In this document: positions 37,191-64,000 of the stretch, piece by piece
Layout: the number at the start of each line of letters is the position of its first letter
Numbering within the stretch: position 1 is the stretch's first letter
Origin: Candidatus Levyibacteriota bacterium
GTDB lineage: Bacteria > Patescibacteriota > Microgenomatia > Levybacterales > UBA12049
Assembly: GCA_027459745.1 (NCBI GenBank)
Contig: DAIDHL010000002.1
Coordinates: forward strand, 9,113 to 73,112
Reading direction: 5' to 3'
DNA length: 64,000 nucleotides
Notes under the pieces: model-generated
The model's database searches: none
The model's input: only the letters and a program-made list of their open reading frames with translations
Told to the model about the DNA's origin: nothing
Position numbers and translations under genes: made by a program

Positions 37191-39431
37191 ATGTTCTCCT
37201 CTGTCCGGAAATTTTTTTTCCTAGTAATCTTGCTAGGACTACTTTTTTTAGCTCCAAAATTAGCTTTTGCTCAAACTGTAAATAATTCAACCTCTTATTC
37301 TAATCAATCTACACAATCCACTGCTATGGTACAACATGACAAAGTTCAACAGTTGATGATTGACGTCCTAAGTGCTTTTAGCTGCCAGTTAGCGGGATAT
37401 GATGCAGCTTTTCCTAATCAACCCTGCGTAACCACAAATACAAAAACTAACACATATGGAACAAGTAATGTTAAAAACTTTGGTTTAATAGGCCTAGAAG
37501 TGCAAGGAATGCTATTAACTTTCACCCCAGTTGCTCATACCGGAACATACATACAAGATATGACTAGTAACTTTGGCCTTGTTAAACACGCCGATGCAGC
37601 TACTGATCCTTGTGCAACTGGTGGGACTTTTGGACAAGGTGTAGGTTACTGTCAACTATACCCTCTCCTACAAATTTGGTCTGTGATGAGAAATCTGGCC
37701 TATCTGGGATTTGTTTTTGTTTTTATCTTAATTGGTTTTGCTATTATGCTTCGCTTGAAGCTAAATCCGAATACAGTTGTCAGCATACAGAATACTATTC
37801 CAAAAATTATAATTGCTTTGGTGTTAATTACCTTCTCTTACGCTATAGCTGGTTTTTTGGTAGATATGATGTATGTATCTATTGGTGTAGTTATTAAACT
37901 AGGAACTCAGGTTGATCCTTTAAGTACCAATAATGCTAATGTCACCATCCCATCTATAATGGGAGACTTGCAGGGAGATAATCCTATAAGCTACGCCAAC
38001 CAAATGATGGGACTTTATGGTACATCTAATACAGCAGCCCAAGCTTTAGGTAATGCAGCTGGCGATATAATAGCCTCTTTTGGAGATGCAGGAAGGATAA
38101 TGGCAGCATTAGTAGGAGGAATCGTGGGAGCTAAGGCAGGAGCAGCTGCAGGAGGATTTTTACAAATTGCAGGAAGTGTTATTGGAGGAGTAGCAGGAAC
38201 ATTTGTTGAGCCAGGAGGTGGATCCGCAGCAGGAGCTGCATTAGGAGGAGGATTAGCAACCGCGCTTGGAACTGCATTAGGATTTGTAGCTGGTGCAGTA
38301 GCTCCAGGTCAAACTATAGCGTTTATGGGTGAGATAATTGGTACCATAGTTCTCTTCATTGCTATATTTATCTCACTCGCTCAACTCTGGCTTGTGTTAC
38401 TTAAAGCATATATCACCATACTTATTGATGTGGTATTCGCACCATTTTGGATTTTGTTGGCCATTGTACCTAAATCAAAATTTACTTTTGGTTCCTGGGT
38501 AAAGGATATGCTGGCCAACCTAGCTGTCTTCCCTATGGTCATCGGCATTTTTGAAATTGGGAAAATCTTTATTGATGCATTTCGCCAACATTATGACTCA
38601 GGCAGATTATTTGCTCCTCCATTAGTAGGCTTAAATACAGGTGGAGAAGGAGCTACTGCACTACAAGCAGTCATAGGCTTAGGTTTTATTTTCCTTGCTC
38701 CTTCTGCTCTAGGCTTAGCCCGTTCCATCTTTGGGGCGCCAAAGTCAAGTCTAATTCAAAATTCTATTCAAGGCTTACAACTTGGAGCTAGCAGAGCAGG
38801 AGCACTATGGGGACAAACAGGTGGCCGCCTAGTAGGAGTAGATAAAAATGGCAATCCTAAACCTTTTACTTCTATACTAGCTGAGAGAAAACGCGAAGCC
38901 GCAGAAGTACGTAATGAGAGATATGCGCAACTACAACATCTTGCATCTAAGCCTGGTGAGAAACTTAGTCTAGGGCAGAAACTACAAATGGGTTACTATC
39001 AAAAGCGCCAGGGATTTGCTAGTAAATTTTCAGAGCCCTTTAAAACATCTCAGCGGATGCTTAAGTTTAATGATACAGTTTTATCTATCATTCACGACAT
39101 TGAACATGATCCAAAACTTGGCCGAGAAGCTTTAAATCGGGGAGATGCATTTGAGACACTTATAATTCCCAGAATCACTGCAAAATTACGTCATGAGACA
39201 AATAATTCACGCCTCGAGCTTGATGATCGAGCCATACTACAAGCGGCTAGAGTATCTATGACAGAAAAGGGTCAGCCTATGAGACAAGATCAAATTAATG
39301 TGCTAAAGAAGAGAATTGAAAGTAAAATTGAGGCAAGAGACCATAAGGGTGCCAATGTTGAAATTGACCTAACCCAGGCAGATAGTAATTTTACTCCACA
39401 GCCAGTCTCCCCAGGTCAGCCTAAGCCTTAA
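37191..39431 (+). CDS. VirB6/TrbL-like polytopic membrane protein with Gly/Ala-rich segment
   Basis: Signal peptide, at least 6 TM helices, G/A-rich linker (GAKAGAAAGG...GGGSAAGAALGGG), then a charged C-terminal domain. The context includes VirB4 and pilins. Confidence 0.45.
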   Translation: MFSSVRKFFFLVILLGLLFLAPKLAFAQTVNNSTSYSNQSTQSTAMVQHDKVQQLMIDVLSAFSCQLAGYDAAFPNQPCVTTNTKTNTYGTSNVKNFGLIGLEVQGMLLTFTPVAHTGTYIQDMTSNFGLVKHADAATDPCATGGTFGQGVGYCQLYPLLQIWSVMRNLAYLGFVFVFILIGFAIMLRLKLNPNTVVSIQNTIPKIIIALVLITFSYAIAGFLVDMMYVSIGVVIKLGTQVDPLSTNNANVTIPSIMGDLQGDNPISYANQMMGLYGTSNTAAQALGNAAGDIIASFGDAGRIMAALVGGIVGAKAGAAAGGFLQIAGSVIGGVAGTFVEPGGGSAAGAALGGGLATALGTALGFVAGAVAPGQTIAFMGEIIGTIVLFIAIFISLAQLWLVLLKAYITILIDVVFAPFWILLAIVPKSKFTFGSWVKDMLANLAVFPMVIGIFEIGKIFIDAFRQHYDSGRLFAPPLVGLNTGGEGATALQAVIGLGFIFLAPSALGLARSIFGAPKSSLIQNSIQGLQLGASRAGALWGQTGGRLVGVDKNGNPKPFTSILAERKREAAEVRNERYAQLQHLASKPGEKLSLGQKLQMGYYQKRQGFASKFSEPFKTSQRMLKFNDTVLSIIHDIEHDPKLGREALNRGDAFETLIIPRITAKLRHETNNSRLELDDRAILQAARVSMTEKGQPMRQDQINVLKKRIESKIEARDHKGANVEIDLTQADSNFTPQPVSPGQPKP

Positions 39432-39436
39432 TAAAC

Positions 39437-42430
39437 TCAAGCAGCCAGGTATCTTTGGGTAGACTTCACAATAGGATTAAACTCATTAATTACTTCTTTA
39501 GCCTTTCCTGGTCTTCTTAACTCTCTCATCAAATCTAGACTAAATAGATGCAATTCCGTGATACGTGCTTTGCGACGTAACCAACGTATATGTTCAGTAT
39601 TAAAGGCATTTCCTGAAGGTCTGTTGTTCTGCAAATTATCTGGATCTCTAAATTCCCCCTCTGGTATCGCTCGTAAAGCAGTAATTACAGAACGATAAAA
39701 TTTAGACCCATATCTATGATCAATTCCATATTTAATACGATGGTTAAAAACCTGCCCAGCCACAATATTGAGAAAGATACTCTTTACTAATTCCTTTCTT
39801 TCCTTCTGCACTTTTTTAACGTCGATTTCATGCTCACCAAACATATTATAGACAGGTACTTCCTTCATTTTTCCAGTCAACCTATCATATTTTTCTTCCA
39901 TTTTCCAAAAAGGTTTGACATCCAATACTTCTCGTCCAAACATTGCCACTGCTAAAGGAACCTCCACATAGTAGAAAAAAGTATCATATTCCACGTGCCC
40001 TTCTTCATTTTTTACTATATTTCCATCGGCATCACGCTTGGGATAGCTTATCTCTTGCTGCATCTTATACTTCTGGGTAAAATCAGTTTTACCCCACGTA
40101 CTGTACATATTGTAGATTTTCTTCAGAATGTCATTTTGTACCTGTTCACCAAATTCTTTTTCTTTCAAGGTGAACTGTTTATCTCTATCATCGAAATGAG
40201 TATAGTCATCCCATTTTATCTCTTTTCCAGAACTGACAATGTCAAACACAGCAGCGGCATTTTTCAAATGATCACGAATATACTGTGTTTGTTCATTACG
40301 ACCGAAACTAAGATTTTCTGTTTGTTTTTTATAGTCTCGCTGAGCTTTCTCCTCCATTTTTCTCTTATCCTCTTCAGTTAAATTTTTATTGTCCTTACTC
40401 TTTTTTAATTTCCTCGTTGTTACATCAGCCGCCTCACGCAGGTGAAAAAATTCTTCTGCGATACTCGTACCACCATCTGTCGAAGAGGCCCAGAAGAAAG
40501 GCGTTGCAGTTTCGTTGAAAACATTTAGTGTGGTAATTGCTCCGGAATAACGCATACGTCCTCGTAATTCTCGTAACCGATTGCGTAAGGTACGAAACAT
40601 TTTGGAGCCACTGAAATTTCTCGATTCCACATCTAACATAGCCACAATCCCGGTCGTATAGGCAAAATTTTCAGCCATTAAAAAAGCAAAGCTTAAGTTG
40701 TCAGAATCAACGATATTTTTCTTTTGACCATTTTCAACGACATCTACCGTCAAATCATATCTTTTAGCTACCATTTCATTGATAATGTTACGTACAGCGG
40801 TAAAGATAATGTTATTTTTCTGAGGCGTGTTATATAGATTTACTAGATCTATCATATAACGATCGGGATTTTTCTTTGCATTTTTCCATTGACCATCAGT
40901 CTTTTCTAAATTTGCCAAAACTTTTTGTGGATCCTGATGCCTGGAGTCTTTTCTGACTACATTTATCACTTCTTTTTCCAGTTCAGAAAAATTAAGCAGC
41001 CTGCATCCTTCAGGATAAAGTGCTTCAAGACTCTGCCTATCACCCAGTGACATAATTGTTTCTACCATCAACAAAAATGCATAACCCATCTTATTATCAG
41101 ATTTCCTACGCACGATTCCTGTCTCAGGATCTTTATCAACTGCTGTTGTATAATTTTGGGGAAGAGTAGCTAAAAACTGCATTAAGCTGGTATCCTCGTC
41201 ATAAAAAGGATCTGTCAAACGATTTTCTGCATAATGCTTAGCTAACAATTCTACATATTGAGCGGGATCTCCACCCCCATTTTGGCGTATATCTACACCG
41301 TAGGTACGTATCAAAGTAGCTGCAAATAACTCCTTGGCAATTGCATTTCCCAGGCGGAACAGGCGATCATCCTCCTTGCCATTAACTCTCTTTTTTCCAA
41401 ACAATTTACCTTGTTTGATAACAGTTTCCACATATAGATTAACCTGACGTGCCCCAACCTGGAAAGAAAGCTTGTCGGGGAAACTCACTTGCGCAGTATA
41501 TGGAGATTCACTTGCATAAAAGTTTATACGCTCACGTACAAAACGCATCACGTTCTCCTCATTCACAGTAACATCGACTTCTTTACTATTGCCCTTTTTT
41601 CTTCTCGGTCGTTTAGATCCATCTCTGGCTATTTCCCACGAATTGACAGTTACTAAAGGGAATGTACCTTCTATATTTTCGTCATTTAAACCTTTACCAT
41701 TAGACCCCTTAGTTCCATCCTTGGCTCCCCATTTATATACATCTACACCTGTAGATAAGTAGTAAAATAACTCCTCGGCACTATCAAATGATTGCATTTT
41801 TTCCTGAGCCTTTAATTGACCTTCTACAATATCTGACTCATTATGCTCTGCTAATGGTATAGTTCCCTGAGATTGATTTTGATCTTTTTGCTGTCTAGCC
41901 CTTCGTCGTTGGGTTAATTCATCCACAGGCTCTGAAGGAGTTGAGGTCTCATCTACTTCAGCTGCAGATCCACCTCGACTCGTTAACCGACGTAGCAAGC
42001 CTGCAAAAGCTGTCTTGGCTTTTTGCAACTTCTCAACATTCTTACGTCTTCCTGCCCGTTCTTCATCACTTAGTTTTTCCTCAACCTTGGCTAGTAGCGG
42101 TTCGATGTCTGAAATCTGTACTTTATCTCTGCTGAGTGCTTTGATACGAATTTTATCAGCCTTTTCTTGAAAATCAATTGGTACCAGATCGGAAAGATCA
42201 TCTACACCACCTATGCGAAAAAACTCGCTTAAATCAGAATAGCTGATATTTTCTTCTTCCCGCCGGCTACGACGTCTGCGTAAAGTATCAATATCTACTA
42301 CTTGTCCATTTTGATCATTATCATCCATAAGTTTTCTCTCATTTCCAGCATAACCTACTAGAGAAGAGGGTGTCAAACCGTTTATGATCTCACTTTGTTC
42401 TAAAATATACTTTTCTACCATACTAGCCAA
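39437..42430 (-). CDS. Large (997 aa) hydrophilic hypothetical protein
   Basis: No TM or recognisable catalytic motif. Highly charged. Confidence 0.5.
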   Translation of the reverse strand: MASMVEKYILEQSEIINGLTPSSLVGYAGNERKLMDDNDQNGQVVDIDTLRRRRSRREEENISYSDLSEFFRIGGVDDLSDLVPIDFQEKADKIRIKALSRDKVQISDIEPLLAKVEEKLSDEERAGRRKNVEKLQKAKTAFAGLLRRLTSRGGSAAEVDETSTPSEPVDELTQRRRARQQKDQNQSQGTIPLAEHNESDIVEGQLKAQEKMQSFDSAEELFYYLSTGVDVYKWGAKDGTKGSNGKGLNDENIEGTFPLVTVNSWEIARDGSKRPRRKKGNSKEVDVTVNEENVMRFVRERINFYASESPYTAQVSFPDKLSFQVGARQVNLYVETVIKQGKLFGKKRVNGKEDDRLFRLGNAIAKELFAATLIRTYGVDIRQNGGGDPAQYVELLAKHYAENRLTDPFYDEDTSLMQFLATLPQNYTTAVDKDPETGIVRRKSDNKMGYAFLLMVETIMSLGDRQSLEALYPEGCRLLNFSELEKEVINVVRKDSRHQDPQKVLANLEKTDGQWKNAKKNPDRYMIDLVNLYNTPQKNNIIFTAVRNIINEMVAKRYDLTVDVVENGQKKNIVDSDNLSFAFLMAENFAYTTGIVAMLDVESRNFSGSKMFRTLRNRLRELRGRMRYSGAITTLNVFNETATPFFWASSTDGGTSIAEEFFHLREAADVTTRKLKKSKDNKNLTEEDKRKMEEKAQRDYKKQTENLSFGRNEQTQYIRDHLKNAAAVFDIVSSGKEIKWDDYTHFDDRDKQFTLKEKEFGEQVQNDILKKIYNMYSTWGKTDFTQKYKMQQEISYPKRDADGNIVKNEEGHVEYDTFFYYVEVPLAVAMFGREVLDVKPFWKMEEKYDRLTGKMKEVPVYNMFGEHEIDVKKVQKERKELVKSIFLNIVAGQVFNHRIKYGIDHRYGSKFYRSVITALRAIPEGEFRDPDNLQNNRPSGNAFNTEHIRWLRRKARITELHLFSLDLMRELRRPGKAKEVINEFNPIVKSTQRYLAA

Positions 42431-42572
42431 ATTTTAGGTTTGAAAAATAAGTGAAACTTGATATTCAAGTAACAAGAAGTTATCAGTAGGCTAACAATTG
42501 TGTAAATTGCCCAATTAAAAAAGATGTTAATCTATAACAAGTTTGAAGTTTAGTTTTCTAATCTATATCTAT

Positions 42573-43913
42573 TCAAGGAGTAAACTTAAAGCCCCTACCT
42601 TTCATGGTCATAATGTGAGTAGGCTGACTGGGATTATCTTCAATTTTTTTACGCAACCTGAGTATTAATTGATCCAAAGCTTGCTCTGTAACTCCTGATA
42701 TAGATTTGTTTTCTCCCCATACCACCTCAATAATTTTTTCTCTATCCACAATTTGTTCGGGATTTAACAAGAAGTATTTAAGTAATCGCAATTCGGATGC
42801 CGTTAAATCATCAGATAGAATTAAACTCCCCTTATGAATTATATTCTTATCAATATCCAATTCTATTTGATCTTTGCTGGCAATTAAAATATTAGAATTT
42901 TTACTTAAAAACTCACTAAAAAGCGGTATGGTTAATTTATTTTCTCTAACTAAGCCTATTTTCTCCAAGTACCGTTCAATATTTTGATTTTCCTCATTTC
43001 TATTTTTACCCAGTATCCACATTTGTTCCGATGGGCTAAAAACATTCCACAGTTCTTTCAACCCCCCTCTTATAGATGTCTGCTCAAGTAAAAAACTTAG
43101 CATTTGGGATTCTTTAAATTGCTCTTCCTTCACTAAATATGCTTCTGCCGCTAAACGGGTCAGCTTGCCATGCCCACTAGTTAAGCCAATAATTTCTTGG
43201 CGTACTTTGGAGGGGATGGTTTTCCCGGTAGCTCGTTCGATATAATCTAGGCGGAATTGTAATCCTGAAATATCTTTTAGATTTAAATATACTAGATGAC
43301 CAGCCAGAAACTCGTGGAAGTCGGAAAAAGTAACTGGCTCTATAAGCTCTTCCAGCGATTTGTTTAAGGAAAAAACTACGGAGAAACGATATTTAGCTCT
43401 ATTACGTAAAATACGCAGATTGGCAAAAAAAGCTGAAGTTAAATTAGGAATATAATCTTCAAAACGATCGAATAGGAACACAATTGTCATCTCTTCATCA
43501 ATAGCTAGATAATCAATTGCATGTTTTAAACCCTGAAAGAGTACCATTTCATCATTAAATGACAAACTTTCTTTGAATAGATTATTCACTTCCTCATAAA
43601 CATCCTCCATTTTACGCTGACGCAAAGATTCAAGTAGACTGAGAAACAAAAGTTTGGTAACTGAGAAAAGATTTTTTCCACGTAATTCAGAAAAATCAAC
43701 TAATACAAAATTAAACCATTTTTGGTTATCACCTAAATGACGTAGACGAACAAAGCGATTATACACTAATAAATGCAAGACTGTGCTCCTGCCTGCGCCT
43801 GGCAAACCTATAAGCTGACAGGAATTACCTTCTTTAATAAAAGAAAGGATTTTCTTGATTTCTTCAAATCTAGTTTCTTCCGGATAAAGCGATTCGAAGT
43901 GGGCAAGTTCCAT
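42573..43913 (-). CDS. Putative regulator: degenerate P-loop NTPase domain plus C-terminal OmpR/PhoB-type winged helix
   Basis: N-terminal 'IGLPGAGRST' (Walker-A-like with Arg in place of Lys) and 'IVFLFDRFEDY' (Walker-B-like). C-terminal 'LTASELRLLKYFLLNPEQIVDREKIIEVVWG...LRLRKKI...TMKGRGFKF' matches the Trans_reg_C wHTH. Confidence 0.6.
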   Translation of the reverse strand: MELAHFESLYPEETRFEEIKKILSFIKEGNSCQLIGLPGAGRSTVLHLLVYNRFVRLRHLGDNQKWFNFVLVDFSELRGKNLFSVTKLLFLSLLESLRQRKMEDVYEEVNNLFKESLSFNDEMVLFQGLKHAIDYLAIDEEMTIVFLFDRFEDYIPNLTSAFFANLRILRNRAKYRFSVVFSLNKSLEELIEPVTFSDFHEFLAGHLVYLNLKDISGLQFRLDYIERATGKTIPSKVRQEIIGLTSGHGKLTRLAAEAYLVKEEQFKESQMLSFLLEQTSIRGGLKELWNVFSPSEQMWILGKNRNEENQNIERYLEKIGLVRENKLTIPLFSEFLSKNSNILIASKDQIELDIDKNIIHKGSLILSDDLTASELRLLKYFLLNPEQIVDREKIIEVVWGENKSISGVTEQALDQLILRLRKKIEDNPSQPTHIMTMKGRGFKFTP

Positions 43914-44003
43914 ACTAAGATAAGTATATATGATCTCATAATTGGAAGCTAGTAGTTACATATGGACTTGCAATATTAAAAGCGTTTAGTCTACGATGAA
44001 TAT

Positions 44004-46478
44004 ATGAGAAAGTCCCTTTTAAATATTCCTTCTATACTTATTTTCTTTAGCTTGTTAGTTTTAATTCTTATATTGCAAATTCTGCCTATAAAAACCGCGC
44101 AGGCTGCAAGCGGCTCTTATGACTATATACCTGCAGGATGCCCTCAAGATCAATGGCATTATGATTCAAGTAAGAAAACCTGGACTAACGACAAAAGTAA
44201 TAATACAAATATGCCTGATACTTGTTATAGCTATGGATTACAGACACCAGATGAAGGCGGACAGATATGGCCACAAGATGGGAGCAAGCTACCAGATAAT
44301 ACAAGCCTGAATAGAGTAAATGGCACAGTCAATGCTAATGACAGGTATGTGAAAATTATAATTCACGGAAATTTTGTTTTAGGAGATCCCAAAAATGGTC
44401 AGTACGAAAGCTCTCTGAACGGTGCTTTCCATAACTTAAATAATGATTATTACTATTCCTTTGCTGTTGAAGATTCTAATGGAGGCATCCAACAAAATAT
44501 AATCTCCTTATTAAAATTCTGTGCTCCTAACTCTAACTCGGAAACTCTGGTAGATCTCTGTCTATATCACAATCATGGCGTTTCATATAGTGAAGATGGT
44601 ACCTATCCAGCTGATAATTCCTTTGGACAGCCAATATCAATTGACAAACAAATCCCAGATATCGGTACTGTAGTAAATCTAGTATCAAGTGCAGGCTATA
44701 AAACTAATGAACTTGTCTTTTACATACCAATTAAGAGCTCTAATTCCGATCTTACACTGAAAACTGTTCAATTTGCTGTTTGGCAAGGTAGTGACCCCTT
44801 AAAAAATATAGATGTATGGTGGAATAATATAATTGCACAAGGAAGTTTTGTAGTTGGAGCACAAGGTAGCGCAAGATTAGGTAGCCCAGGTATAGTTATA
44901 CAACCACGCGGAGGTGCGGCAACAGGTACTGAATATACTTATCAAACAGGTCAACCTATTACAGTTAATTTAACCAATGTAGATAATTCAGTAGGGTACA
45001 CACTTGGACTATACGATATTAGTGATCCCAATAATACTCAACATCTAGAAGACTTATGGAGTAATCAAAAATTAGACCAGAATATTAATATATCTAATAA
45101 TGATAGTACTCTTAGTAGTGGCGGTAAGAGCACGTATAACTCAACTAATCATACTGAAACATTTACTCTTACAGCAAATAACAATTTTACCCAAAACCCT
45201 GTAATGTTATGTCTCTTTCAACCAATAAATGGGAGTAGTGATGTGGGTTGTACTACCACTACAAATTTTAATAGTGCTAACGGCACATCTGGTGAAGGTT
45301 TTGCAACAAGCCATGGTTTTATTGTAACTACATTATCGCCCGATAAGGTCCAGTCTCCCACCCGAGCTGCCGGTGCGTCCGGAGATGTAAAATGGACTCC
45401 CCTGACTACTGCTGTTGGTATGTTCTTACCTTGCAACAATGACCCCAGTCTTTCTGCCGCAAATGCTCCTTCTGTTAAAAACCTCGGCACTAAAGGCGTT
45501 GACTCAAATCAATTTCTCTTTTCCGATGCCTGGAGTAATTTCCTTGCGGCAGCAAATTTCTTCTTTACCGGCCAATCGACCACACCACCTAACACAAATA
45601 GTAATCAACAGCTAGCTTATAACTCAACATCTTCACCTGAGTTTGCTTTGCAACCAGGCTCGGGAGTCAGTGGAAATGGAGGATTACAAGTCTATCCTAA
45701 TTCAGTTAAATATATGCAAGATTCATTGACTTTATATTTCACGACACCAACAAATGGAGTCAACGGAACATATAATATAAAAATAGAAAGAAATTCCGAT
45801 GCTGCATCAGTAGTAGACACCACAGTTAAGGCTTGTTCTAATCTAAAAGTTGGAGATACCTGCAGTATCCAAATACCAGTTAGTGATTTCCACAACATTG
45901 TAATTCCATACAATCAAAATGTTCCTTTTATAGTCAACATATTAGATAGTCAAATTGGTTTTGCTCAGTCTTTTCCAATTACAATGACCGGATATATTGC
46001 TTGTAATTACCCAGCAAGTACTTCTGACACACAAAATTTAAAATGTTATAACGGACAAACATGTGTAGATAATGTCTCCGGAAGTAGTCAAGGACATACC
46101 ACCGCAACATCAAGTTGTTCAAGCCCTGCTGCACCTAAATCCCCAGTAGGGACAAATCCTACAATCACTCCCACTATTGGTCCATTAGCTCCTTGTGTTG
46201 CTGTAGATACAGCTATGGGGAATATCAACACAGACCCAGTTGGGTTTATTCAGAGTTTATTTGGTATTTTGCTTAGCTTGAGTGGTGGAATAGCACTGTT
46301 GATTATCATCTACAATGGTTATCGTCTCATGATTTCCCGCGGCAACCCAGACGCCATCAAAAAAGCGCGTGAAGGTATTACCTCTGGTATCATAGGTATT
46401 ATCTTTGCTATCCTATCTATAGCCATATTACAAACCATTGGAGTCGATATTTTACATTTACCAGGATTTGGAAACTAA
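44004..46478 (+). CDS. Large secreted surface protein fused to a C-terminal VirB2/TrbC-like pilin module
   Basis: Signal peptide. About 720 aa S/T/N-rich extracellular region with Cys pairs. C-terminal '...LSLSGGIALLIIIYNGYRLMISRGNPDAIKKAREGITSGIIGIIFAILSIAIL' matches the two-helix pilin module of the three small pilin-like genes. Confidence 0.6.
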   Translation: MRKSLLNIPSILIFFSLLVLILILQILPIKTAQAASGSYDYIPAGCPQDQWHYDSSKKTWTNDKSNNTNMPDTCYSYGLQTPDEGGQIWPQDGSKLPDNTSLNRVNGTVNANDRYVKIIIHGNFVLGDPKNGQYESSLNGAFHNLNNDYYYSFAVEDSNGGIQQNIISLLKFCAPNSNSETLVDLCLYHNHGVSYSEDGTYPADNSFGQPISIDKQIPDIGTVVNLVSSAGYKTNELVFYIPIKSSNSDLTLKTVQFAVWQGSDPLKNIDVWWNNIIAQGSFVVGAQGSARLGSPGIVIQPRGGAATGTEYTYQTGQPITVNLTNVDNSVGYTLGLYDISDPNNTQHLEDLWSNQKLDQNINISNNDSTLSSGGKSTYNSTNHTETFTLTANNNFTQNPVMLCLFQPINGSSDVGCTTTTNFNSANGTSGEGFATSHGFIVTTLSPDKVQSPTRAAGASGDVKWTPLTTAVGMFLPCNNDPSLSAANAPSVKNLGTKGVDSNQFLFSDAWSNFLAAANFFFTGQSTTPPNTNSNQQLAYNSTSSPEFALQPGSGVSGNGGLQVYPNSVKYMQDSLTLYFTTPTNGVNGTYNIKIERNSDAASVVDTTVKACSNLKVGDTCSIQIPVSDFHNIVIPYNQNVPFIVNILDSQIGFAQSFPITMTGYIACNYPASTSDTQNLKCYNGQTCVDNVSGSSQGHTTATSSCSSPAAPKSPVGTNPTITPTIGPLAPCVAVDTAMGNINTDPVGFIQSLFGILLSLSGGIALLIIIYNGYRLMISRGNPDAIKKAREGITSGIIGIIFAILSIAILQTIGVDILHLPGFGN

Positions 46479-46481
46479 CAT

Positions 46482-46847
46482 ATGTTAAAAGATACCTTGC
46501 TAGCCCTTACTATTCCCGGCCCCAATAGCGGCACTACTAATATTACCCTACCCAATGCTGTAAGTTGCGGCAGCAATGGCTGTTTTAACACCATCATGCA
46601 AGGTATTGTTCAATGGCTGTTTGTCTTTGCAATTATACTTTGCCTAGCTTATTTAATCTGGGGAGGTATAGATTGGACCATGTCCTATGGGGATAAAACT
46701 AAAATACAGAAAGCTCGATTAAAACTTGTGTATGCCATCATAGGTTTATTTATTGTTTTCTTGTCATTCTTCATTATCAACCTAAGTGGTAAATTATTGG
46801 GGCTACCTCTCACCAATGTCAGCACACAAATAAATACTGCCCCATAA
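46482..46847 (+). CDS. VirB2/TrbC-like T4SS pilin-module protein
   Basis: Hydrophobic helix - 'LIWGGIDWTMSYGDKTKIQKARLKLVYAIIGLFIVFLSF' - second helix. Start is 4 nt after the preceding stop. Confidence 0.55.
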   Translation: MLKDTLLALTIPGPNSGTTNITLPNAVSCGSNGCFNTIMQGIVQWLFVFAIILCLAYLIWGGIDWTMSYGDKTKIQKARLKLVYAIIGLFIVFLSFFIINLSGKLLGLPLTNVSTQINTAP

Positions 46848-49725: not shown

Positions 49726-50151
49726 ATGAAATTTGATTTAAGAAAACCGTTTATTTTCGCATCTACCACTGCCGTTATGGGCGCAGCTGCTACATTACCA
49801 GCTTTTGCAGGTAATAGTAATTATGTTGGAATCTGTCCAACAGGATCATTTGCAGGAGTATGTAATCCGAATATAAGCACTCTATTGGGCAGTGTTATCA
49901 ATGTAGTCTTCGTTATAGCTATTCTTATTGCCTTGTTCTTCCTTATCTATGGTGGTATTCGTTGGATCATTTCTCAGGGTAATAAAGAAAAGGTCAATGG
50001 AGCTCGAGATATGTTAATAGCTGCTTTGATTGGATTAATTGTCGTCTTCTTATCATATTTTTTGCTTGGTTTGGTTATACAATTATTATTCGGACAATCG
50101 ACACAGAATTTGATTAATTCAGTAACTTCTAATGGTATTTTTAATCATTAA
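49726..50151 (+). CDS. VirB2/TrbC-like T4SS pilin-module protein
   Basis: Signal peptide (cleavage near AFA-GNS). '...LIYGGIRWIISQGNKEKVNGARDMLIAALIGLIVVFLSYF' two-helix module. Confidence 0.6.
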   Translation: MKFDLRKPFIFASTTAVMGAAATLPAFAGNSNYVGICPTGSFAGVCNPNISTLLGSVINVVFVIAILIALFFLIYGGIRWIISQGNKEKVNGARDMLIAALIGLIVVFLSYFLLGLVIQLLFGQSTQNLINSVTSNGIFNH

Positions 50152-57056: not shown

Positions 57057-57707
57057 ATGGCTGCCCAAAAAATTCATTCATCAACACAAAAATTTACCGA
57101 AATTGTCGATATAGTCGATAACATTGTGGTACTGGAGGGCGGCTATGCTTGTGTGGTTATTGAACTCACAGCTACTAATTTTGCCTTATTGTCTCGACAG
57201 GAACAGGATGCCAAGATCTATGCCTATGCGGGTTTACTTAACTCGTTAAATTTCCCTATACAAATTTTAGTACGTAACAAAAGGGTAGATATTACTTCTT
57301 ATATTAATCAACTTGAAGATGCAGAAAAACGCACAACCAACAATCAGTTAAAAGATCAAATCGAGCAATACAAGAGTTTTGTTAATGAAATGGTGACAGT
57401 AAACGTAGTCTTAAATAAGCAGTTTTACATCGTTATTTCATACTCGTCACTTGAAGGCGGTATTGGAGCTATTGCACCAGGTAAAGGCAGTCAGAAAGAT
57501 GCTTTTGTAGCTGCGGCCAGCAAAACCTTATTAACTAAAGCGGAATCTATTCATGGTCAGCTTAATCAGCTGGCGAGCACGGCAAAACTTCTGGAACGAG
57601 AAGAATTAATTAAATTATTTTATGATATTTATAACAACGATATTGTGGAACCAAACCAAATAGTTACAGATATTACAACGCCGATAATTCAGTCGGCAAG
57701 TAAGTAG
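57057..57707 (+). CDS. Hypothetical protein immediately upstream of virB4
   Basis: 216 aa with no TM helix. Confidence 0.4.
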   Translation: MAAQKIHSSTQKFTEIVDIVDNIVVLEGGYACVVIELTATNFALLSRQEQDAKIYAYAGLLNSLNFPIQILVRNKRVDITSYINQLEDAEKRTTNNQLKDQIEQYKSFVNEMVTVNVVLNKQFYIVISYSSLEGGIGAIAPGKGSQKDAFVAAASKTLLTKAESIHGQLNQLASTAKLLEREELIKLFYDIYNNDIVEPNQIVTDITTPIIQSASK

Positions 57708-57759
57708 TAGTAAGGTTATTTACTTTTACCCAACTAGGGAAGTCTGAATTAATTTAAAT

Positions 57760-59889
57760 ATGGCTTTATTTAACAAAAAAAGAAATCAAAAGACGGAGAA
57801 CTCTCCGATGGCGGCTGCTCAAGCAGCCGGAGACAAAGCAGTGCAGCAATTGCAAAAAGGCATGGTCTCACTGGTTGATATTATCGCCCCTTCATCGATT
57901 GAAGTAGATTTTAAATATATTCGTATCGGCGAGACCTACTATACGACACTATTTGTAGTTGGCTATCCACGCTTTGTTTCCACCAACTGGCTACAACCTC
58001 TGGTCGATTTTGATCATACTTTGGATATTTCTATGTTTGCCTATCCAACCTCGGGCGCGGACGTATTGGGAGATTTGAAACGTAAAATTGCGGAGATGGA
58101 AGCCACTATTTCTTCGGATATAGAACGTGGCAAACCGGCTGACCCAACCGTTCAGGCAGCCTTGGAAGATGCTCTAGCTTTACAGGAAGAATTGGCCAAG
58201 GGTATTGAAAGATTTTTCCAATTTAGCTTTTATATCACTATTTCTGCTGAGAGTTTACCTGATCTAGTTGATACAGAAAAAAGACTGAAAACCACGCTGG
58301 CCTCAGTCTTGTTAAGCGCCAAGTCCGCGACATTGCAAATGGAAGATGGCTTTAAAACCACCTTACCGATCGCTCAAGACCGCTTGGCTATCACTCGCAA
58401 TATGGACACCACCTCTTTGGCTTCCACCTTTCCTTTTACATCGGCTGTATTAACGCAAAACAAAGGAGTATTGTATGGATTAAATCGACAAAATGGCTCA
58501 TTAATTATCTTTGATCGCTTCTCCTTAGAAAATGCCAATGAAGTCGTATTGGGTAAATCCGGCTCTGGAAAATCTTATACTATCAAACTGGAAATTATGC
58601 GCCAGTTTATGTTAGGCGCCGAAGTAATTGTCATTGATCCAGAAGGAGAATATGAGACCCTTACCCAGGCTATGGGAGGAGAAGTTGTCAGTTTCTCTGC
58701 CAATGATCCCATTAAGATTAATCCTTTTGACTTATCTGAATTATATGAAGAAGGTGAAAACGAGCTAGGACTAAAAATATTATCTTTGCATGGTCTGTTA
58801 AAAATCATCATGGGAAATATTGACGCCGAACATGAGGCTATATTAGATAAGGCCCTGGTTGAGACCTACCGCCAAAAGGGCATTACCCCTGACCCTGCTA
58901 CACAAAAGAAAGATCCTCCCCTAATGGAAGATTTGTATAAAGTTTTATTGGGTTATGAAAATGCAGCTGCACGAGAATTGGCTTATCGTTTGGAAAAGTT
59001 TATCAAGGGCTCAGCTGCTGGGATTTTCAACCAGAAATCAAACTTTGATTTAAAGAACCCTTTAACCGTTTTTAATATCAAACAACTAGAAGAAGACTTA
59101 CGTCCGATTGCCATGCATATCATTCTGGATTTTGTCTGGACGAAAGTTAAAAAGAGCTTAAAGAAACGTGTTTTAGTATTAGATGAAGCCTGGTACATGA
59201 TGAAGTACCAAGATTCAGCCTCATTTGTTTACTCAATCGCCAAACGTGCAAGAAAGTATTACTTAGGCATGACGACTGCCACTCAGGATGTAGAAGATTT
59301 TCTTTCCACTGACTACGGAAAAGCCGTTTTGACCAATTCTTCTATTCAAGTTTTACTCAAGCAGGGCACGGCAGAAGTTGATATGGTTTCGGAAACTTTT
59401 TACCTTACAGAAGGTGAAAAAGAACTACTAGTGTCTGCTGATATCGGGGAAGGATTATTTTTTGCCGGACAGAACCATGTTGCAATCAAAATTATTGCAG
59501 CGCCTTACGAGAATGATATGATTACTTCCAACCCAGCCGAATTACTTAAACAACAACAAGACATGCAAGAACAAGCCGCAGTAGAAGATGCAATCGCACA
59601 ACCTCCTGTAGAGACGACGAATAGTTATGCTAAAAAGACTGATGATTTAATTGGATCTTTAGATGAAAGGGCAAAACAAATTGCAAATCAATTTGCACAA
59701 CCAACTTCTGCTGCTGTTCCCAATATTTCTCCTATAATAAATACTGAAAATATAACGTCTACACCTATATCTGTTAGCGCTCAGCCGGCACAAACCAACC
59801 TTACTGCTCCAGTCCAATCTTTTCAGCCTCCAATACCAACAGCCATACCTACTCAACCAACACCCGCGGATCCCGCCAAACCGTTTTAG
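57760..59889 (+). CDS. virB4: VirB4/TrbE/CagE-family T4SS ATPase
   Basis: Walker A 'GKSGSGKSYT', Walker B 'VLVLDEAWYMM'. Size about 700 aa. Typical VirB4 C-terminal blocks. Confidence 0.85.
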   Translation: MALFNKKRNQKTENSPMAAAQAAGDKAVQQLQKGMVSLVDIIAPSSIEVDFKYIRIGETYYTTLFVVGYPRFVSTNWLQPLVDFDHTLDISMFAYPTSGADVLGDLKRKIAEMEATISSDIERGKPADPTVQAALEDALALQEELAKGIERFFQFSFYITISAESLPDLVDTEKRLKTTLASVLLSAKSATLQMEDGFKTTLPIAQDRLAITRNMDTTSLASTFPFTSAVLTQNKGVLYGLNRQNGSLIIFDRFSLENANEVVLGKSGSGKSYTIKLEIMRQFMLGAEVIVIDPEGEYETLTQAMGGEVVSFSANDPIKINPFDLSELYEEGENELGLKILSLHGLLKIIMGNIDAEHEAILDKALVETYRQKGITPDPATQKKDPPLMEDLYKVLLGYENAAARELAYRLEKFIKGSAAGIFNQKSNFDLKNPLTVFNIKQLEEDLRPIAMHIILDFVWTKVKKSLKKRVLVLDEAWYMMKYQDSASFVYSIAKRARKYYLGMTTATQDVEDFLSTDYGKAVLTNSSIQVLLKQGTAEVDMVSETFYLTEGEKELLVSADIGEGLFFAGQNHVAIKIIAAPYENDMITSNPAELLKQQQDMQEQAAVEDAIAQPPVETTNSYAKKTDDLIGSLDERAKQIANQFAQPTSAAVPNISPIINTENITSTPISVSAQPAQTNLTAPVQSFQPPIPTAIPTQPTPADPAKPF

Positions 59890-59928
59890 ACGATTAACAC
59901 TCTTCAGACTGTATAGTATACTGAGAAT

Positions 59929-62900
59929 ATGGCTGCCCTTAATTCGCCCCCCGCATCTAAATTTAGCCTGCTAAGATCTCGTGTAATCTCTGGGATTAGG
60001 CATCCTTTTGGACGCCACAATATTGGCAACCCATATCGCAATAATGATTCAAACAACTCCCGCTCCAAAACAACATCTTTGTTTTTAAGTCGAGAAGAGT
60101 CAGAGCAACGTAGATTCCAAACCGAAAGAGCTATATCTGATTTACAAAACTTCTTTAGAGAGAACATACCCACGAAAAGAGACTTACAAAATTCTAAGGC
60201 ATTTTCTTTATGGTTAAGCTCTAATGGTTTGCTTCCGCAATTTAAAAAATTATGGCACGAGAAGATTATTTTTGAAAAAACTTATCATACCTCCTCTTCT
60301 CGGTTGTTATCAAATTATTCAAGTGATGACTCCAGGAATATTTTTTCTAGATTCGCTCCGAGATATTTTCAATTGAGATCTAAATACATACAAAAAACTG
60401 TTGAATCATTAGCCAATGTTGACATGTTGCTTCCATTACTTAGACAACAATTAAATGCTGTAAATCCAAGTAATAATTCAATTAGTACTAAAACGCCTTC
60501 CTCCTCGTTTAGTCTGGATCCAGCGAGTTTAAGATCGACCTTAATGTCTATTGCTACAGCTACAGATCAGATGAGGCCCAACCCAGGCGCCTCATCGCCC
60601 ACATTAGAGAAGCACCAAGAGACAGCCTCATTAGGAAATGACAGTAAAAAAGCAGAGGTTGTTATGCACCAGGAAGCAGTTAAGAAAGTAGACGAACAAG
60701 AGTCAGATAAAAAAAATGATGCGGATAAAACAGACAACCACAAAAAGGATCTTCAGATTCAAGATTTAATAACTCCCGCTCCTTCCGCCAACAATACCAG
60801 TGGCTCTCTGACTCACTCAATCAATCCTAAACCATCTATGGGGTTTGAAAAACAATCATTTACCTTTATAGTTCCGCCCCAACCGTCTCTTAAAGAAGAG
60901 ACTAAGGAAACTCTTCCTACTAAAAAATATTGGTCAAGAGTTTCGAAAAAGTTTTCTGAATTCCCTTTTTTAAGAAGAACTGCTGCCCCAAATCCACTAC
61001 GACAGCAAGTTGATGCAGTCAGGTGGATTAAATACGCCAACACTTCCTTAAATAACTTACCCGATGCACAATTAGCCCAACATGATCCTAATTTCCCCCG
61101 CTATAGAGCGGCTTACAAACAACAAGAAGCTTTTCTGAAGCAAAGAGGATTAAGTAGGTGGAGATCGCCCTCCATGTCAAGCAATCCTAGTATTTCCCAA
61201 CAGAGAGAAATCAGTTTGCCACCAGAAACTTTACCATTCGCAAAAGAAGCAACCACTGGAAGCGCAATATCTGTAAATCTTCAAGATCGGATTACAAATC
61301 CAACTATTATTCCAACCACAGAACCTCTCCACATGCAAGCAAAAAGAGACGCAGCTACTTTGTATAGACAAGCTGGCGAAGTGCCAAATGAATTGTCTTC
61401 TAGTGTAAGACAGGCTCTTGTTGCACGAAATTTATCACAACTTAAACAACCATTTTCAAGTTTACAAGGCCAATTACCAAACATCACTTTTGCACAGATT
61501 CACCAGGGAGAAATAGAAATTGCCAGATTGCAAGCTAAAATTCAATCCCAAAGGCCAGTTACTAAATTATCGACATTAATTACTCCCACACCTCCATTAA
61601 GTTCTGGCCCACAAGATCCCATCAGGCTCACAGTTACACCAACATCTATCACCCCATCTCCTGTTCAGGATGGAAGTAGAATTGACAACACTAATATAAC
61701 TAAAAAAACAAATGTTCCAACTACAATAACGCAGCCAGGTTTTAATGCAACTTTTAACCTTAATATCCCTAGCAGACAGATTCCAGAAAGTGCTTCATTC
61801 AATATTACACATCAGACTAAACCATCCACAATCAAATTTTCCTTTAAGTCTGGGATCCCCGCTTCTAGCAGAAGATCGTTGAGACGGGAAGAAGAAGGTG
61901 AAGATTATTCTTATTTGCCAGAAAGAGATAATCCGTCTTTTACTGACAACTATTCTACTCCCAACGATGAACAAGATACTCTAAATTCAACAACCACAGC
62001 CACTGAGGAGGATCAGTCTGATCCGCAGAAAAAAAATCGTGGCTTGCTCGATACAAGAAGTTTTATTTCAAAGTATAGACTCGCTATCGGAGTTTCAGGT
62101 GGAGCTGTAATGATTTTTTTGCTGGTGTTTGTATTAGGATTGAATGGGGTAGATGCTGGTCCAAGTACTGATAACGGAAGTGGAACAAACGGTGGAGGAT
62201 CTACTTATAATCAGCAAAATGTAGTCTTACAAAAAACAGTTGACAATACAACTGGAAACTCTATTAAGTCGGGTTCTAAATTAACGTACACGATCACTGT
62301 CAATGTGGAAAACGATCCAGTCCAAGAGATTGATGTGACGGACCCAATAACATTTAGCATTAAAGGAGCACCCACCCAGGTAACGGCTCCCTATAGTTAT
62401 GAAGCTTCAAGTAAGACTTTATCATGGAAGTTGACCAATCCTCCTCAGCCAGGTGGATCCACCACGTTAAGCTTTACAGTAAGTCCAACAGATAATAATA
62501 CTTCAATTTATAACATAGCTTACGCCAATGTGATAGGTAGTCAATCCGGAACTGGTAGTTTAGTGGGTAGCACTATTCCTTCCAACACCTCCAACTGCAA
62601 TAATAGGTGGAATATCACCTCAGGGTACCATGATGGAGTAAATTTTGGTGACCCAGCCTGCGTCTTGGCAAAATCGGCTCTAGTACAAAACTATCCAGGT
62701 GCACAAAACTACCCCACATGGGAGAACAACCCAGCATGGCCGAAATCGCCAGAACAGGCGTTAGTTGATTTAGTAAATCAAGACGATCCAGCTAATGCAG
62801 ATTATTGGCTAGGCATATCTGCTTGTGAATCTCAATATGATCCAAATACAGTAGCATCTAACGGTCCGGTCGGTCTTTTCCAAATGGGTCACCCTGGTGT

Positions 62901-63048
62901 GACAGTAACCAATGGTCAGTATGATAATGGCTACGTACAGTGGCAACAACAAGTAGCAAATGCAGTCATTTATGAAAAAAACCTAAAAACGCTCGGAGCT
63001 GCTTGGAAATATTGGGCTTGCGCAAGAGATGTTTTTGGCTTATGGTAA
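59929..63048 (+). CDS. Large membrane-anchored protein with C-terminal lytic transglycosylase (SLT, VirB1-like) domain
   Basis: About 700-aa hydrophilic N-terminal part, single TM (LAIGVSGGAVMIFLLVFVLGL), Ig-like surface repeat, then 'ISACESQYDPNTVASNGPVGLFQMG' SLT catalytic-Glu/GLxQ motif. Confidence 0.6.
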   Translation: MAALNSPPASKFSLLRSRVISGIRHPFGRHNIGNPYRNNDSNNSRSKTTSLFLSREESEQRRFQTERAISDLQNFFRENIPTKRDLQNSKAFSLWLSSNGLLPQFKKLWHEKIIFEKTYHTSSSRLLSNYSSDDSRNIFSRFAPRYFQLRSKYIQKTVESLANVDMLLPLLRQQLNAVNPSNNSISTKTPSSSFSLDPASLRSTLMSIATATDQMRPNPGASSPTLEKHQETASLGNDSKKAEVVMHQEAVKKVDEQESDKKNDADKTDNHKKDLQIQDLITPAPSANNTSGSLTHSINPKPSMGFEKQSFTFIVPPQPSLKEETKETLPTKKYWSRVSKKFSEFPFLRRTAAPNPLRQQVDAVRWIKYANTSLNNLPDAQLAQHDPNFPRYRAAYKQQEAFLKQRGLSRWRSPSMSSNPSISQQREISLPPETLPFAKEATTGSAISVNLQDRITNPTIIPTTEPLHMQAKRDAATLYRQAGEVPNELSSSVRQALVARNLSQLKQPFSSLQGQLPNITFAQIHQGEIEIARLQAKIQSQRPVTKLSTLITPTPPLSSGPQDPIRLTVTPTSITPSPVQDGSRIDNTNITKKTNVPTTITQPGFNATFNLNIPSRQIPESASFNITHQTKPSTIKFSFKSGIPASSRRSLRREEEGEDYSYLPERDNPSFTDNYSTPNDEQDTLNSTTTATEEDQSDPQKKNRGLLDTRSFISKYRLAIGVSGGAVMIFLLVFVLGLNGVDAGPSTDNGSGTNGGGSTYNQQNVVLQKTVDNTTGNSIKSGSKLTYTITVNVENDPVQEIDVTDPITFSIKGAPTQVTAPYSYEASSKTLSWKLTNPPQPGGSTTLSFTVSPTDNNTSIYNIAYANVIGSQSGTGSLVGSTIPSNTSNCNNRWNITSGYHDGVNFGDPACVLAKSALVQNYPGAQNYPTWENNPAWPKSPEQALVDLVNQDDPANADYWLGISACESQYDPNTVASNGPVGLFQMGHPGVTVTNGQYDNGYVQWQQQVANAVIYEKNLKTLGAAWKYWACARDVFGLW

Positions 63049-63577
63049 ACTTATGAGTACAAAGTTAAAAGTATTATATACTCTAATATTCTTATCGGTA
63101 TTAATAATGATTGCTATAATTGTTGGCATGTTAGCCTCATATAACAATAAAGACTTATCTAATATTACCCCCCCACCTCTTCCTTCGCCGGTTATATCTA
63201 TGACTACACCAACACTCCCTCCTCAACAATCAATAGAATCATTGGTTAATAGAGTAAACAATAAAAAGCCACTCGACACGTCTGATGACACGATTAGGAA
63301 AAGTTTAATTACTAAAGCCAATCAAAATGGGCTTGTTATACATACTAACGATTACAATATTAATTACTCCAAAGACGCAAATGTTTTTCAAATAGAACTA
63401 TTAACACAAGATATTACTCCTGCCATAACTAAGGCTATCTCCTGGTTTAGAGACTTAGGTATGAGTAATCAAGGAATGTGCAATCTGCCACTCATAATAT
63501 ATAGAGATCCAAAGGCATTTAATCCAAATCTTAAGGCAGGAATGGAATTCTATTCATTACCCTTTACGTGTCAATAA
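63029..63577 (+). CDS. Hypothetical single-TM protein
   Basis: 182 aa with an N-terminal TM helix. Overlaps the upstream stop. Confidence 0.35.
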   Translation: MFLAYGKLMSTKLKVLYTLIFLSVLIMIAIIVGMLASYNNKDLSNITPPPLPSPVISMTTPTLPPQQSIESLVNRVNNKKPLDTSDDTIRKSLITKANQNGLVIHTNDYNINYSKDANVFQIELLTQDITPAITKAISWFRDLGMSNQGMCNLPLIIYRDPKAFNPNLKAGMEFYSLPFTCQ

Positions 63578-63582
63578 ATCTT

Positions 63583-64000
63583 ATGAAAAGAATACTTTTA
63601 TTTTTATTATCTTTTACATTTATTTTTATTTCATCAGGATTAGTTTTCGCGCAAGACTCTAACAGCAATTGTGTTATTACCAATATTGGCACTGGTAATC
63701 CAAATGCTATACCTCCAAATTGTTCACAGAACTCTAGTAGTGGTACATCAAATATGGCTAGTACGGCCATGGCATTATTCGACGCAGGCAGCCCATGTGG
63801 TGACATAAATAAAAGCACGTATAATTGTATGATAAGAAATATTAAATACTCTTCAATGCCATACCCTGAAGCAGCCGCAAGCAACATATCAAATGGGGTA
63901 AACAATGTGGTAGATCCTTATCAGTGCATCAACTTTGTAGAATCAACAGTTGCAGGAACTTACGGAAATATCTGGGACTCATGGAACAACGCCAACTGGT
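63583..64000 (+). CDS. Secreted CHAP-domain-like peptidoglycan hydrolase (partial, continues past window end)
   Basis: Clear signal peptide (MKRILLFLLSFTFIFISSGLVFAQD). '...DPYQCINFVESTVAG' resembles the CHAP catalytic Cys block. Open to the window edge. Confidence 0.45.
   Translation, partial: MKRILLFLLSFTFIFISSGLVFAQDSNSNCVITNIGTGNPNAIPPNCSQNSSSGTSNMASTAMALFDAGSPCGDINKSTYNCMIRNIKYSSMPYPEAAASNISNGVNNVVDPYQCINFVESTVAGTYGNIWDSWNNANW

Follow-up and report, generated by a model that had tools for sequence, protein, structure and literature searches.

The last part of the 64,000-nucleotide stretch of Candidatus Levyibacteriota DNA analysed here (the window), positions 37191-64000, very probably encodes a chromosomal, vertically inherited type IV secretion system (T4SS) of the Patescibacteria clade that descends from MPF_FATA conjugation machinery, having kept the channel and pilus genes and lost those for DNA processing and substrate recruitment. 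If this identity is right, the output of the system is likely to be a VirB2-type filament or tube, assembled by VirB4 and used for host contact. An earlier note, made from the sequence alone, had described a Gram-positive or Candidate Phyla Radiation (CPR) style T4SS and argued against classical conjugation, which agrees with the gene evidence below and with published work (PMC10633639, PMC12102498). The novelty that it assumed did not survive, since the same two papers had already reported the system; it was described for the phylum between 2023 and 2025, and the window holds an ordinary, essentially complete example of it.

Open reading frames (ORFs) were listed across the whole window; 18 that do not overlap make up the locus, and every coordinate given in the earlier note matches one. 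For comparison we collected 80 loci around VirB4 homologues, and the presence of protein families is counted out of 81. Domains were called with Pfam at the gathering score and with NCBIfam at the curated cut-off, and families from the window were aligned by hhalign with single proteins of pSK41, pCF10 and Tn916. These alignments recovered only TrsD and VirB4; VirB3, VirB6, VirB8, VirB1 and the pilins were missed, which we treat as low sensitivity of the method and as no evidence against those assignments. The genes that carry the identification are the following, with lengths in amino acids (aa) and predicted transmembrane (TM) segments where relevant.

57760-59889, + strand: VirB4-family ATPase of MPF_FATA type, 709 aa, recognised by Pfam, NCBIfam, hhalign and phmmer
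57057-57707, + strand: TrsD-like protein, 216 aa, recognised by hhalign, phmmer and NCBIfam and not listed in the earlier note
55510-57051, + strand: PrgI/VirB3-like fusion, with PrgI at aa 6-93 (two TM segments), a Pro/Ser/Thr-rich linker of ~300 aa and a CarboxypepD_reg-type beta-sandwich at aa 419-474
44004-46478, + strand: large pilin fusion, 824 aa, with a signal/TM segment, a Ser/Thr/Asn-rich N-terminal region of ~700 aa that has no detectable domain, and a VirB2-like pilin domain at aa 746-810
46482-46847, + strand: VirB2-like pilin, 121 aa, with two hydrophobic helices (PF18895 36.6 bits; weak TrbC/VirB2 PF04956)
49726-50151, + strand: VirB2-like pilin, 141 aa, with an N-terminal signal-like segment (PF18895 36.4 bits)
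50301-50654, + strand: VirB2-like pilin, 117 aa (PF18895 43.0 bits; NF045849 E 3.5e-7)

The VirB4 assignment is the firmest. The protein matches Pfam P-loop_TraG at 1e-29, together with DUF87 and AAA_10, and passes NF045971, the NCBIfam model of the CD1110 family of VirB4-like conjugal transfer ATPases from monoderm conjugative elements, with 390.9 bits against a cut-off of 325. It also aligns with pSK41 TrsE (hhalign 99.9%) and with pCF10 PrgJ (phmmer 1.2e-42). There are at least 8000 homologues, the best of which are 57-89% identical and come from Levybacteria, Shapirobacteria, Microgenomates and Paceibacterota; the named relatives are Patescibacteria, chiefly Candidatus Levybacteria, with the closest species representative at 89% identity. 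Judged by these nearest neighbours, the protein would belong to the Patescibacteria clade of VirB4.

Directly upstream lies the TrsD-like protein, whose family is present in 76/81 loci and aligns with pSK41 TrsD over 174 columns (hhalign 92% probability, E 6.4e-7). Searching with TrsD by phmmer matched 40 related loci and the window protein itself at E 5.9e-4. Its NCBIfam matches all fall under full-length curated cut-offs and are mutually consistent: TrsD NF041427 at E 1.5e-3, and positions 102-235 of the Mycoplasma integrative and conjugative element (ICE) VirB4 model NF045975 at E 1.2e-8. The window VirB4 covers positions 277-893 of the latter model. Because the two proteins match successive parts of one VirB4 model, the TrsD-like protein is best read as a detached, free-standing domain of the VirB4 N-terminal type. 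A pairwise BLASTP of the TrsD-like protein against VirB4 gave no match. A direct hhalign comparison of the two families reached 96.8% probability in an odd register and at low diversity, and was not relied on.

The PrgI/VirB3-like fusion is found in 76/81 loci, two genes upstream of VirB4. In the window protein PrgI (PF12666) scores 31.1 bits against a gathering score of 27 and CarboxypepD_reg scores 29.4 bits; across the family, 72/72 members match PrgI and 71/72 match CarboxypepD_reg. The frequency of the gene, 76/81 loci, differs from that in a phylum-wide survey, which found few virB4-associated VirB3 genes in Microgenomatia (PMC12102498).

Four T4SS_pilin (PF18895) domains score above the gathering score, share 28-31% identity with one another (31% between the proteins at 46482-46847 and 50301-50654) and have the helix-loop-helix layout of VirB2. 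In the large fusion only the C-terminus belongs to this family (33.6 bits against a gathering score of 26.6; NF045849, Mycoplasma-ICE pilin-like, E 4.6e-6). The best NCBIfam match of all four domains is that Mycoplasma ICE pilin-like family, at E 3.5e-7 to 1.3e-3 and below the cut-off. These matches, and the annotation of pSK41 TrsB as CagC/VirB2-like, hint that the MPF_FATA lineage may have small VirB2-like proteins of its own. Pilin arrays of 1-7 genes (median 3) occur in 51 loci. Members of at least 190 aa are present in 24 loci and stand first in the array in 22/24, the window copy being the longest. The VirB4, PrgI/VirB3-like and four VirB2-like calls of the earlier note were thus borne out, the pilin call in the large fusion for its C-terminus alone.

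Comparison of the loci places these genes in a fixed chromosomal setting. Gene order is conserved across the 80 patescibacterial loci: a compact cluster of ~15 kb runs from the VirB6-like gene through a ~1000-aa protein (big997, − strand), a regulator, the large pilin fusion (in some loci), the pilins, the PrgI fusion, the TrsD-like protein and VirB4 to a lysozyme-like protein, and continues with a small membrane-anchored protein (p182, 1-3 copies), CHAP and Ig-like genes (in some loci), dnaN (−), dnaA (−) and then rnpA, yidC and jag. Wherever at least 8 kb of downstream sequence is available, dnaN-dnaA follows the cluster (48/48 loci), at a median of 3.4 kb and a maximum of 6.3 kb after VirB4. 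The window stops 4.1 kb past VirB4, within the CHAP-family gene; in two relatives (L022 and L001, the latter the closest) a single Ig-like gene separates that gene from dnaN-dnaA. The window locus is therefore predicted, from its relatives, to lie near dnaN-dnaA and oriC just outside the window, a position typical of Microgenomatia and Paceibacteria. The cumulative GC skew continues falling at the window end. The first 34 kb of the window hold housekeeping genes (ATP-dependent DNA ligase, FtsH, Tgt, RecF, a GT4 glycosyltransferase, a P-type ATPase and a Fic protein) as well as a XerC/D-type recombinase and eight tRNAs, and the GC content of the locus (0.35-0.41) matches that of the rest of the window, with no compositional anomaly.

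The divergence of VirB4 points the same way. Across the same 50 genomes the median pairwise identity of VirB4 is 62.9%, against 48.4% for DnaA and 40.5% for DnaN, and VirB4 divergence correlates with that of DnaA and DnaN (Spearman 0.75-0.79, a descriptive figure since the pairs are phylogenetically non-independent). VirB4 behaves like a vertically inherited core gene with conservation of the housekeeping type.

The genes that would make the machine conjugative are missing from its neighbourhood. All ORFs of the window and of the 80 related loci were searched by phmmer with three coupling proteins (TrsK, PcfC and Tn916 Orf21) and four relaxases (Nes, MobV, PcfG and MobT). As the earlier note had stated for VirD4 and relaxase, none was found among the window ORFs, and Pfam found no relaxase or coupling-protein domain in the large upstream ORFs or those of the locus. 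All 80 loci lacked a relaxase within 10 kb of VirB4, and one of them had a coupling protein (L071 5016-7343, − strand, with TrwB_AAD_bind and TraG-D_C both above gathering scores). A repeat scan found no att-like direct repeat of tRNA 3′ ends in 27-64 kb and no feature resembling an origin of transfer (oriT). Since dnaN-dnaA follows in all 48 relatives, a conjugative module just past the window edge, a possibility that the earlier note had raised, is very unlikely, and with no relaxase in the 80 loci it is effectively excluded.

The remaining conserved genes of the cluster complete the inventory of the machine.

37191-39431, + strand: VirB6/TrbL-like polytopic membrane protein, 746 aa, with a signal peptide and conserved TM regions at aa ~160-240 and 373-515
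39437-42430, − strand: big997, a hydrophilic protein of ~1000 aa with no TM segment and no recognisable domain
42573-43913, − strand: putative transcription regulator, with an N-terminal AAA_22-like P-loop and a C-terminal OmpR/PhoB-type winged helix, recognised by Pfam
59929-63048, + strand: protein in the VirB1 position, 1039 aa, with a long N-terminal region, one TM segment at aa 716-746, a weak Ig-like DUF7927 match and a lysozyme-like C-terminus
63029-63577, + strand: p182, a small membrane-anchored protein of 182 aa, with a TM segment, a Pro-rich linker and a domain of ~110 aa that has two invariant Cys
63583-64000, + strand: secreted protein of a CHAP-hydrolase family, N-terminal 139 aa, with the catalytic domain mostly past the window edge

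The VirB6/TrbL-like call of the earlier note holds at the level of the family and its predicted fold and not as a direct sequence match: a sequence-profile search of the PDB with this family came back empty. Besides its TM regions the protein has a Gly/Ala-rich loop, whose coding sequence (38123-38282) is made up of imperfect short repeats, and a long hydrophilic C-terminal tail. VirB6 homologues have been reported as scarce in Microgenomatia, with extreme divergence suggested as the cause (PMC12102498), and this divergent family is a good candidate for the Microgenomatia VirB6.

Similarly, the SLT domain that the earlier note placed in 59929-63048 is supported through relatives, while the window protein itself scores 14.8 bits against a gathering score of 21.3. 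The domain, of the SLT/C-type lysozyme superfamily, occupies the last ~140 aa; 6/21 relatives match SLT (best 3e-5), and the family profile matches C-type lysozymes at E 5.5e-4 across a Glu that is invariant in 21 orthologues. This family directly follows VirB4 in 43 loci. In 9 other loci, which form a sub-lineage, the protein in the same slot ends in Peptidase_M23 instead (e.g. L066 11761-14457). Such a swap of hydrolase domains at a fixed slot argues for a VirB1-like, wall-cutting role, a function that family-level evidence would assign to the window protein. The proposed CHAP-like hydrolase at 63583 also stands through its family only: the 139-aa fragment has no direct CHAP or other domain match, and belongs to a family found in 10 loci in which L001 16826-17686 carries CHAP at 30.5 bits (gathering score 26) and L022 8795-9538 at a sub-threshold 20.3 bits. 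The fragment aligns with the L001 protein across the N-terminal region (BLASTP E 8e-9).

The gene for big997 is invariably placed between those for the VirB6-like protein and the regulator and is read from the opposite strand; the protein has no Pfam, NCBIfam or PDB-sequence match, its two families are homologous (hhalign 100%) and jointly present in 18 loci, and a word-index search returned only the protein itself and one relative at 49% identity. The p182 protein frequently occurs in 2-3 tandem copies in relatives and has 432 cluster representatives among 1.8 billion proteins. A VirB8-like component would combine an N-terminal TM segment with an NTF2-like extracytoplasmic domain, and p182, with its TM segment and ~110-aa domain, is a candidate. 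It gave no hhalign match to PrgL, Orf13 or TrsH and no PDB-sequence match. Its single-sequence AlphaFold2 model has no Foldseek match, VirB8 included, but is too weak (pLDDT 62) to speak for or against a VirB8 fold. The regulator (Trans_reg_C 2.2e-19, AAA_22 6.6e-4, NCBIfam matches confined to response-regulator DNA-binding domains) is found in 27 loci at about 48% identity and is transcribed divergently from the pilin array.

The closest known counterparts are the Patescibacteria-clade systems, represented by SEML1_0006-0019 of Ca. Southlakia epibionticum ML1 and by TM7x. In Ca. Southlakia epibionticum the T4SS resembles Gram-positive conjugative systems, includes pilin genes that are essential, has no recognisable coupling protein or relaxase, and is itself required for epibiotic growth (Wang et al. 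2023, PMC10633639). Few other machines have been shown to be indispensable to the epibiotic way of life, and for the Patescibacteria T4SS this was shown in one Saccharibacterium. The survey of Quinonero-Coronel et al. (2025) described a monophyletic Patescibacteria VirB4 clade nested in MPF_FATA, with TrsD as the commonest virB4 neighbour, VirB2 arrays especially common in Microgenomatia, relaxases nearly absent, T4CPs (type IV coupling proteins) rarely adjacent and the cluster close to dnaA (PMC12102498), and a 2025 review counts the system as a new T4SS type (PMC12857230). The window shares with these systems an MPF_FATA VirB4, an adjoining TrsD, PrgI/VirB3, divergent pilin arrays (28-31% identity here, a reported average of ~25% in PMC12102498), downstream peptidoglycan hydrolases, surroundings free of relaxase and coupling-protein genes and a place near dnaA, which for the window is predicted. 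It differs as a Levybacteria/Microgenomatia version: its VirB6-like family is divergent, PrgI in its lineage is fused to the linker and the CarboxypepD_reg beta-sandwich, the first pilin is a large fusion, the ATPase-winged-helix regulator and the ~1000-aa protein are conserved in the lineage, and the window copy exceeds 27 kb.

In the pGO1/pSK41 Trs system of Staphylococcus aureus, an MPF_FATA system with TrsD, the order is TrsB (CagC/VirB2-like), TrsC (VirB3), TrsD, TrsE (VirB4), (TrsF) and TrsG (SLT and CHAP), which the window order of pilins, PrgI, TrsD-like protein, VirB4, lysozyme-like protein and CHAP parallels, with significant homology for TrsD and TrsE. The coupling protein TrsK, the relaxase Nes, oriT, a topoisomerase, SSB and a plasmid location belong to pSK41 and were not found for the window locus, in which the hydrolase domains are divided over two genes and the pilins are multiplied. 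The Mycoplasma ICE (Mbov_0395, pilin-like; Mbov_0397, VirB4) resembles the window in its pilins and in the TrsD-like/VirB4 pair, all matches being below cut-offs; it differs in being mobile and transferring DNA, and its TrsD-like segment lies within VirB4 where the window has a separate gene. Helicobacter ComB (DNA uptake), Bordetella Ptl and Brucella VirB are likewise non-conjugative VirB4 machines without VirD4 (PMC12857230). They are diderm systems with a VirB7/9/10 outer-membrane core, Ptl and Brucella VirB load substrates from the periplasm, and the sequence relation is limited to the VirB4, VirB2, VirB3 and VirB6 superfamilies; a functional likeness to the window locus would be a possible analogy. 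To the published survey the window adds the VirB6 candidate, a PrgI-beta-sandwich fusion that is universal in the lineage, the reading of TrsD as a detached VirB4 N-terminal-type domain, the conserved regulator and ~1000-aa protein, the slot in which lysozyme-like and M23 domains are swapped, and a VirB4 that diverges more slowly than DnaA. These additions leave the overall picture unchanged, and since the organism is uncultivated they make the question of cargo and direction no more testable.

Pilus biogenesis by Gram-negative T4SSs requires the VirB4, VirB2, VirB3 and VirB6 components and does not require VirD4. Since the channel and pilus genes of the locus have been kept and the DNA-processing and recruitment genes are gone, a filament is therefore the likeliest output. 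In such a machine VirB4 would work with the separate TrsD-like domain, with the PrgI/VirB3 fusion as an anchor and the VirB6-like polytopic channel protein beneath. VirB4 would pull the VirB2-like pilins from the membrane and polymerise them into a pilus or tube of the conjugative type, and the lysozyme-like enzyme and the CHAP hydrolase would open the cell wall, whether that of the cell itself, of its host, or both. The three small pilin paralogues and the large pilin fusion could give rise to filament variants and surface variation, or the fusion could serve as an adhesin at the tip or base, and the ATPase-winged-helix regulator probably controls the pilin operon. The finished filament would make or maintain contact with the host and may serve as a conduit. 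At a parasite-host interface, tubular structures have been reported that could be T4SS pili (bioRxiv 10.64898/2026.06.21.733656).

Several points weigh against this interpretation. The Levybacteria pilus would be one known from genes alone, and the genetics of epibiosis come from a single Saccharibacterium; the dependence of CPR episymbiosis on such machines, as put forward in the earlier note, is thus shown there (PMC10633639) and not in Levybacteria. The VirB6, SLT and CHAP assignments are made at the level of family or fold, and no VirB8-like component was found among the cluster proteins examined, p182 being the candidate tested. If the two TM segments of PrgI place its N-terminus inside, the beta-sandwich would be cytoplasmic, which is unexplained. 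The conserved big997 and p182, the accessory proteins big981, s123 and p444 and two polytopic proteins have no assigned role. Finally, the genome may carry a coupling-protein gene at another site, in which case export of protein or DNA is possible.

One alternative is an import machine, comparable to Helicobacter ComB or the Ced system of Sulfolobales, that takes up host DNA, RNA or nucleotides needed by auxotrophic cells. This would account for the missing relaxase and coupling protein and for the conservation, which resembles that of essential genes, and ComB-type uptake systems without VirD4 have been cited as a precedent (PMC11665869). In S. epibionticum, comEC is dispensable and the T4SS essential (PMC11665869, PMC12857230), and a 2026 preprint proposes acquisition of host RNA and describes host-penetrating tubular structures (bioRxiv 10.64898/2026.06.21.733656). 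The window VirB4 also matches the DNA-import ATPases CedB (E 4.9e-15) and CedD (1.8e-8), weakly and far under the cut-offs, though these matches reflect shared VirB4/HerA ATPase ancestry. Pfam and NCBIfam found no nuclease, DNA-binding protein or ComEC-like channel in the cluster. We consider import compatible with the data, as is the export of effectors discussed next, but unlikely; it overlaps the filament interpretation and differs from it in cargo and direction only. More improbable again is an elaborated version in which a T4SS that has kept the core for its pilus and channel alone would import nucleic acids from the host cytoplasm, with big997, the PrgI beta-sandwich and p182 replacing VirB8 and the coupling protein and the GT-C-like membrane proteins of the pilin array glycosylating the pilus. 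Were such an import conduit real, it would represent a new functional class of T4SS, beyond a decayed conjugation system.

A translocator that delivers effectors or toxins into a host bacterium, by way of a coupling protein encoded at a distance or of a new kind of recruitment factor and with big997, big981 and s123 as substrates, is likewise doubtful. The cluster does encode two proteins of ~1000 aa with no TM segment, signal peptide or domain, one of them (big997) in 18 loci and the other (big981, with a Gly-zipper-like segment) together with s123 in a variable slot. Effector delivery is also a common speculation in the literature (PMC11665869, PMC10633639), and T4CP homologues lie elsewhere in many Patescibacteria genomes, the survey counting 5,713 in 2,918 genomes (PMC12102498). 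However, 79/80 loci have no T4CP nearby, the distal t4cp of S. epibionticum is non-essential where the T4SS genes are essential (PMC12102498), no toxin, immunity or secretion-signal domain was detected in the cluster proteins searched, and the proposed substrates are pure conjecture.

The last alternative, that the locus is the transfer module of an ICE, possibly decayed, with its relaxase, coupling protein and oriT outside the window, draws on the CD1110 conjugative-transposon cut-off that VirB4 passes, on a gene order like that of pSK41 and pCF10 and on a tyrosine recombinase (28088-28948, + strand) and a tRNA cluster, both lying 3-9 kb upstream, and is extremely improbable and largely refuted by the fixed place beside dnaN-dnaA, a VirB4 divergence that follows DnaA and DnaN at a slower pace, the missing relaxase and T4CP, a GC content equal to that of the flanks, the lack of att-like repeats, the ordinary XerC/D architecture of the recombinase (flanked by tRNAs at 27347-27663 and 29141-29226) and a published VirB4 phylogeny of class-specific clades with rare inter-class transfer (PMC12102498).

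The window copy of the resident T4SS is expanded to more than 27 kb by two polytopic proteins within the pilin array and by a block of three genes between the pilins and PrgI. Most of these insertions are also present in L001, the closest relative.

46869-48098, + strand: polytopic membrane protein, 409 aa, about 10 TM segments, lineage-specific, inside the pilin array, borderline GT87
48147-49670, + strand: polytopic membrane protein, 507 aa, about 10 TM segments, inside the pilin array, with no Pfam, NCBIfam or PDB match
50692-51063, − strand: s123, a small acidic helical accessory protein of 123 aa, downstream partner of big981, with no domain match
51070-54015, − strand: big981, a hydrophilic accessory protein of 981 aa in a variable slot between the pilins and PrgI, found in 6 loci
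54071-55405, + strand: p444, an accessory protein of 444 aa with a C-terminal hydrophobic segment and no domain match, its family found in 6 loci

The first polytopic protein matches PF09594 GT87, a GT-C-type glycosyltransferase family, at E 2.5e-5 and 24.6 bits against a gathering score of 25; none of the 80 loci has a homologue of it within 10 kb of VirB4, and PDB-sequence and NCBIfam searches gave no match. Homologues of the second adjoin pilin genes in five loci (L001, L014, L019, L028 and L040). The s123 protein co-occurs with the big981 family in 6 loci, and big981, which is unrelated to big997 by hhalign, has a Gly-rich, Gly-zipper-like hydrophobic stretch at aa 210-285 with a weak YidB-like match alone. 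In L001 a fragment of an rve/Mu-type transposase (21473-22114, − strand) lies immediately past dnaA.

At the other end of the locus, an M48 peptidase gene (35428-37035) was considered as part of the system and rejected, since no homologue lies near VirB4 in any of the 80 loci. It is flanked by a 79-nt direct repeat (34987-35065 and 37044-37122) of 78% identity, nearly identical over the last ~45 nt, the second copy of which stops 70 nt upstream of the VirB6-like gene. The repeat could be the scar of an insertion, or its copies could serve a common regulatory or terminator function. Scans for promoters and terminators gave results at or below shuffle expectation, and Rfam found nothing but tRNAs.

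One of these tRNAs, a tRNA-Ser at 29141-29226 (+ strand) that Rfam supports with 55.5 bits, has a long variable arm and the anticodon loop TTACTAA, which gives the anticodon ACT (A34) where GCT is usual; the other Ser tRNAs of the window are GGA, CGA and TGA. Outside the locus, three membrane proteins have no Pfam match (3163-3747, 24956-26152 and 26202-27293). The last two are encoded by neighbouring polytopic genes that resemble paralogues, and the first two share similar Gln-rich C-terminal tails with the motif PTIDYNAKL.

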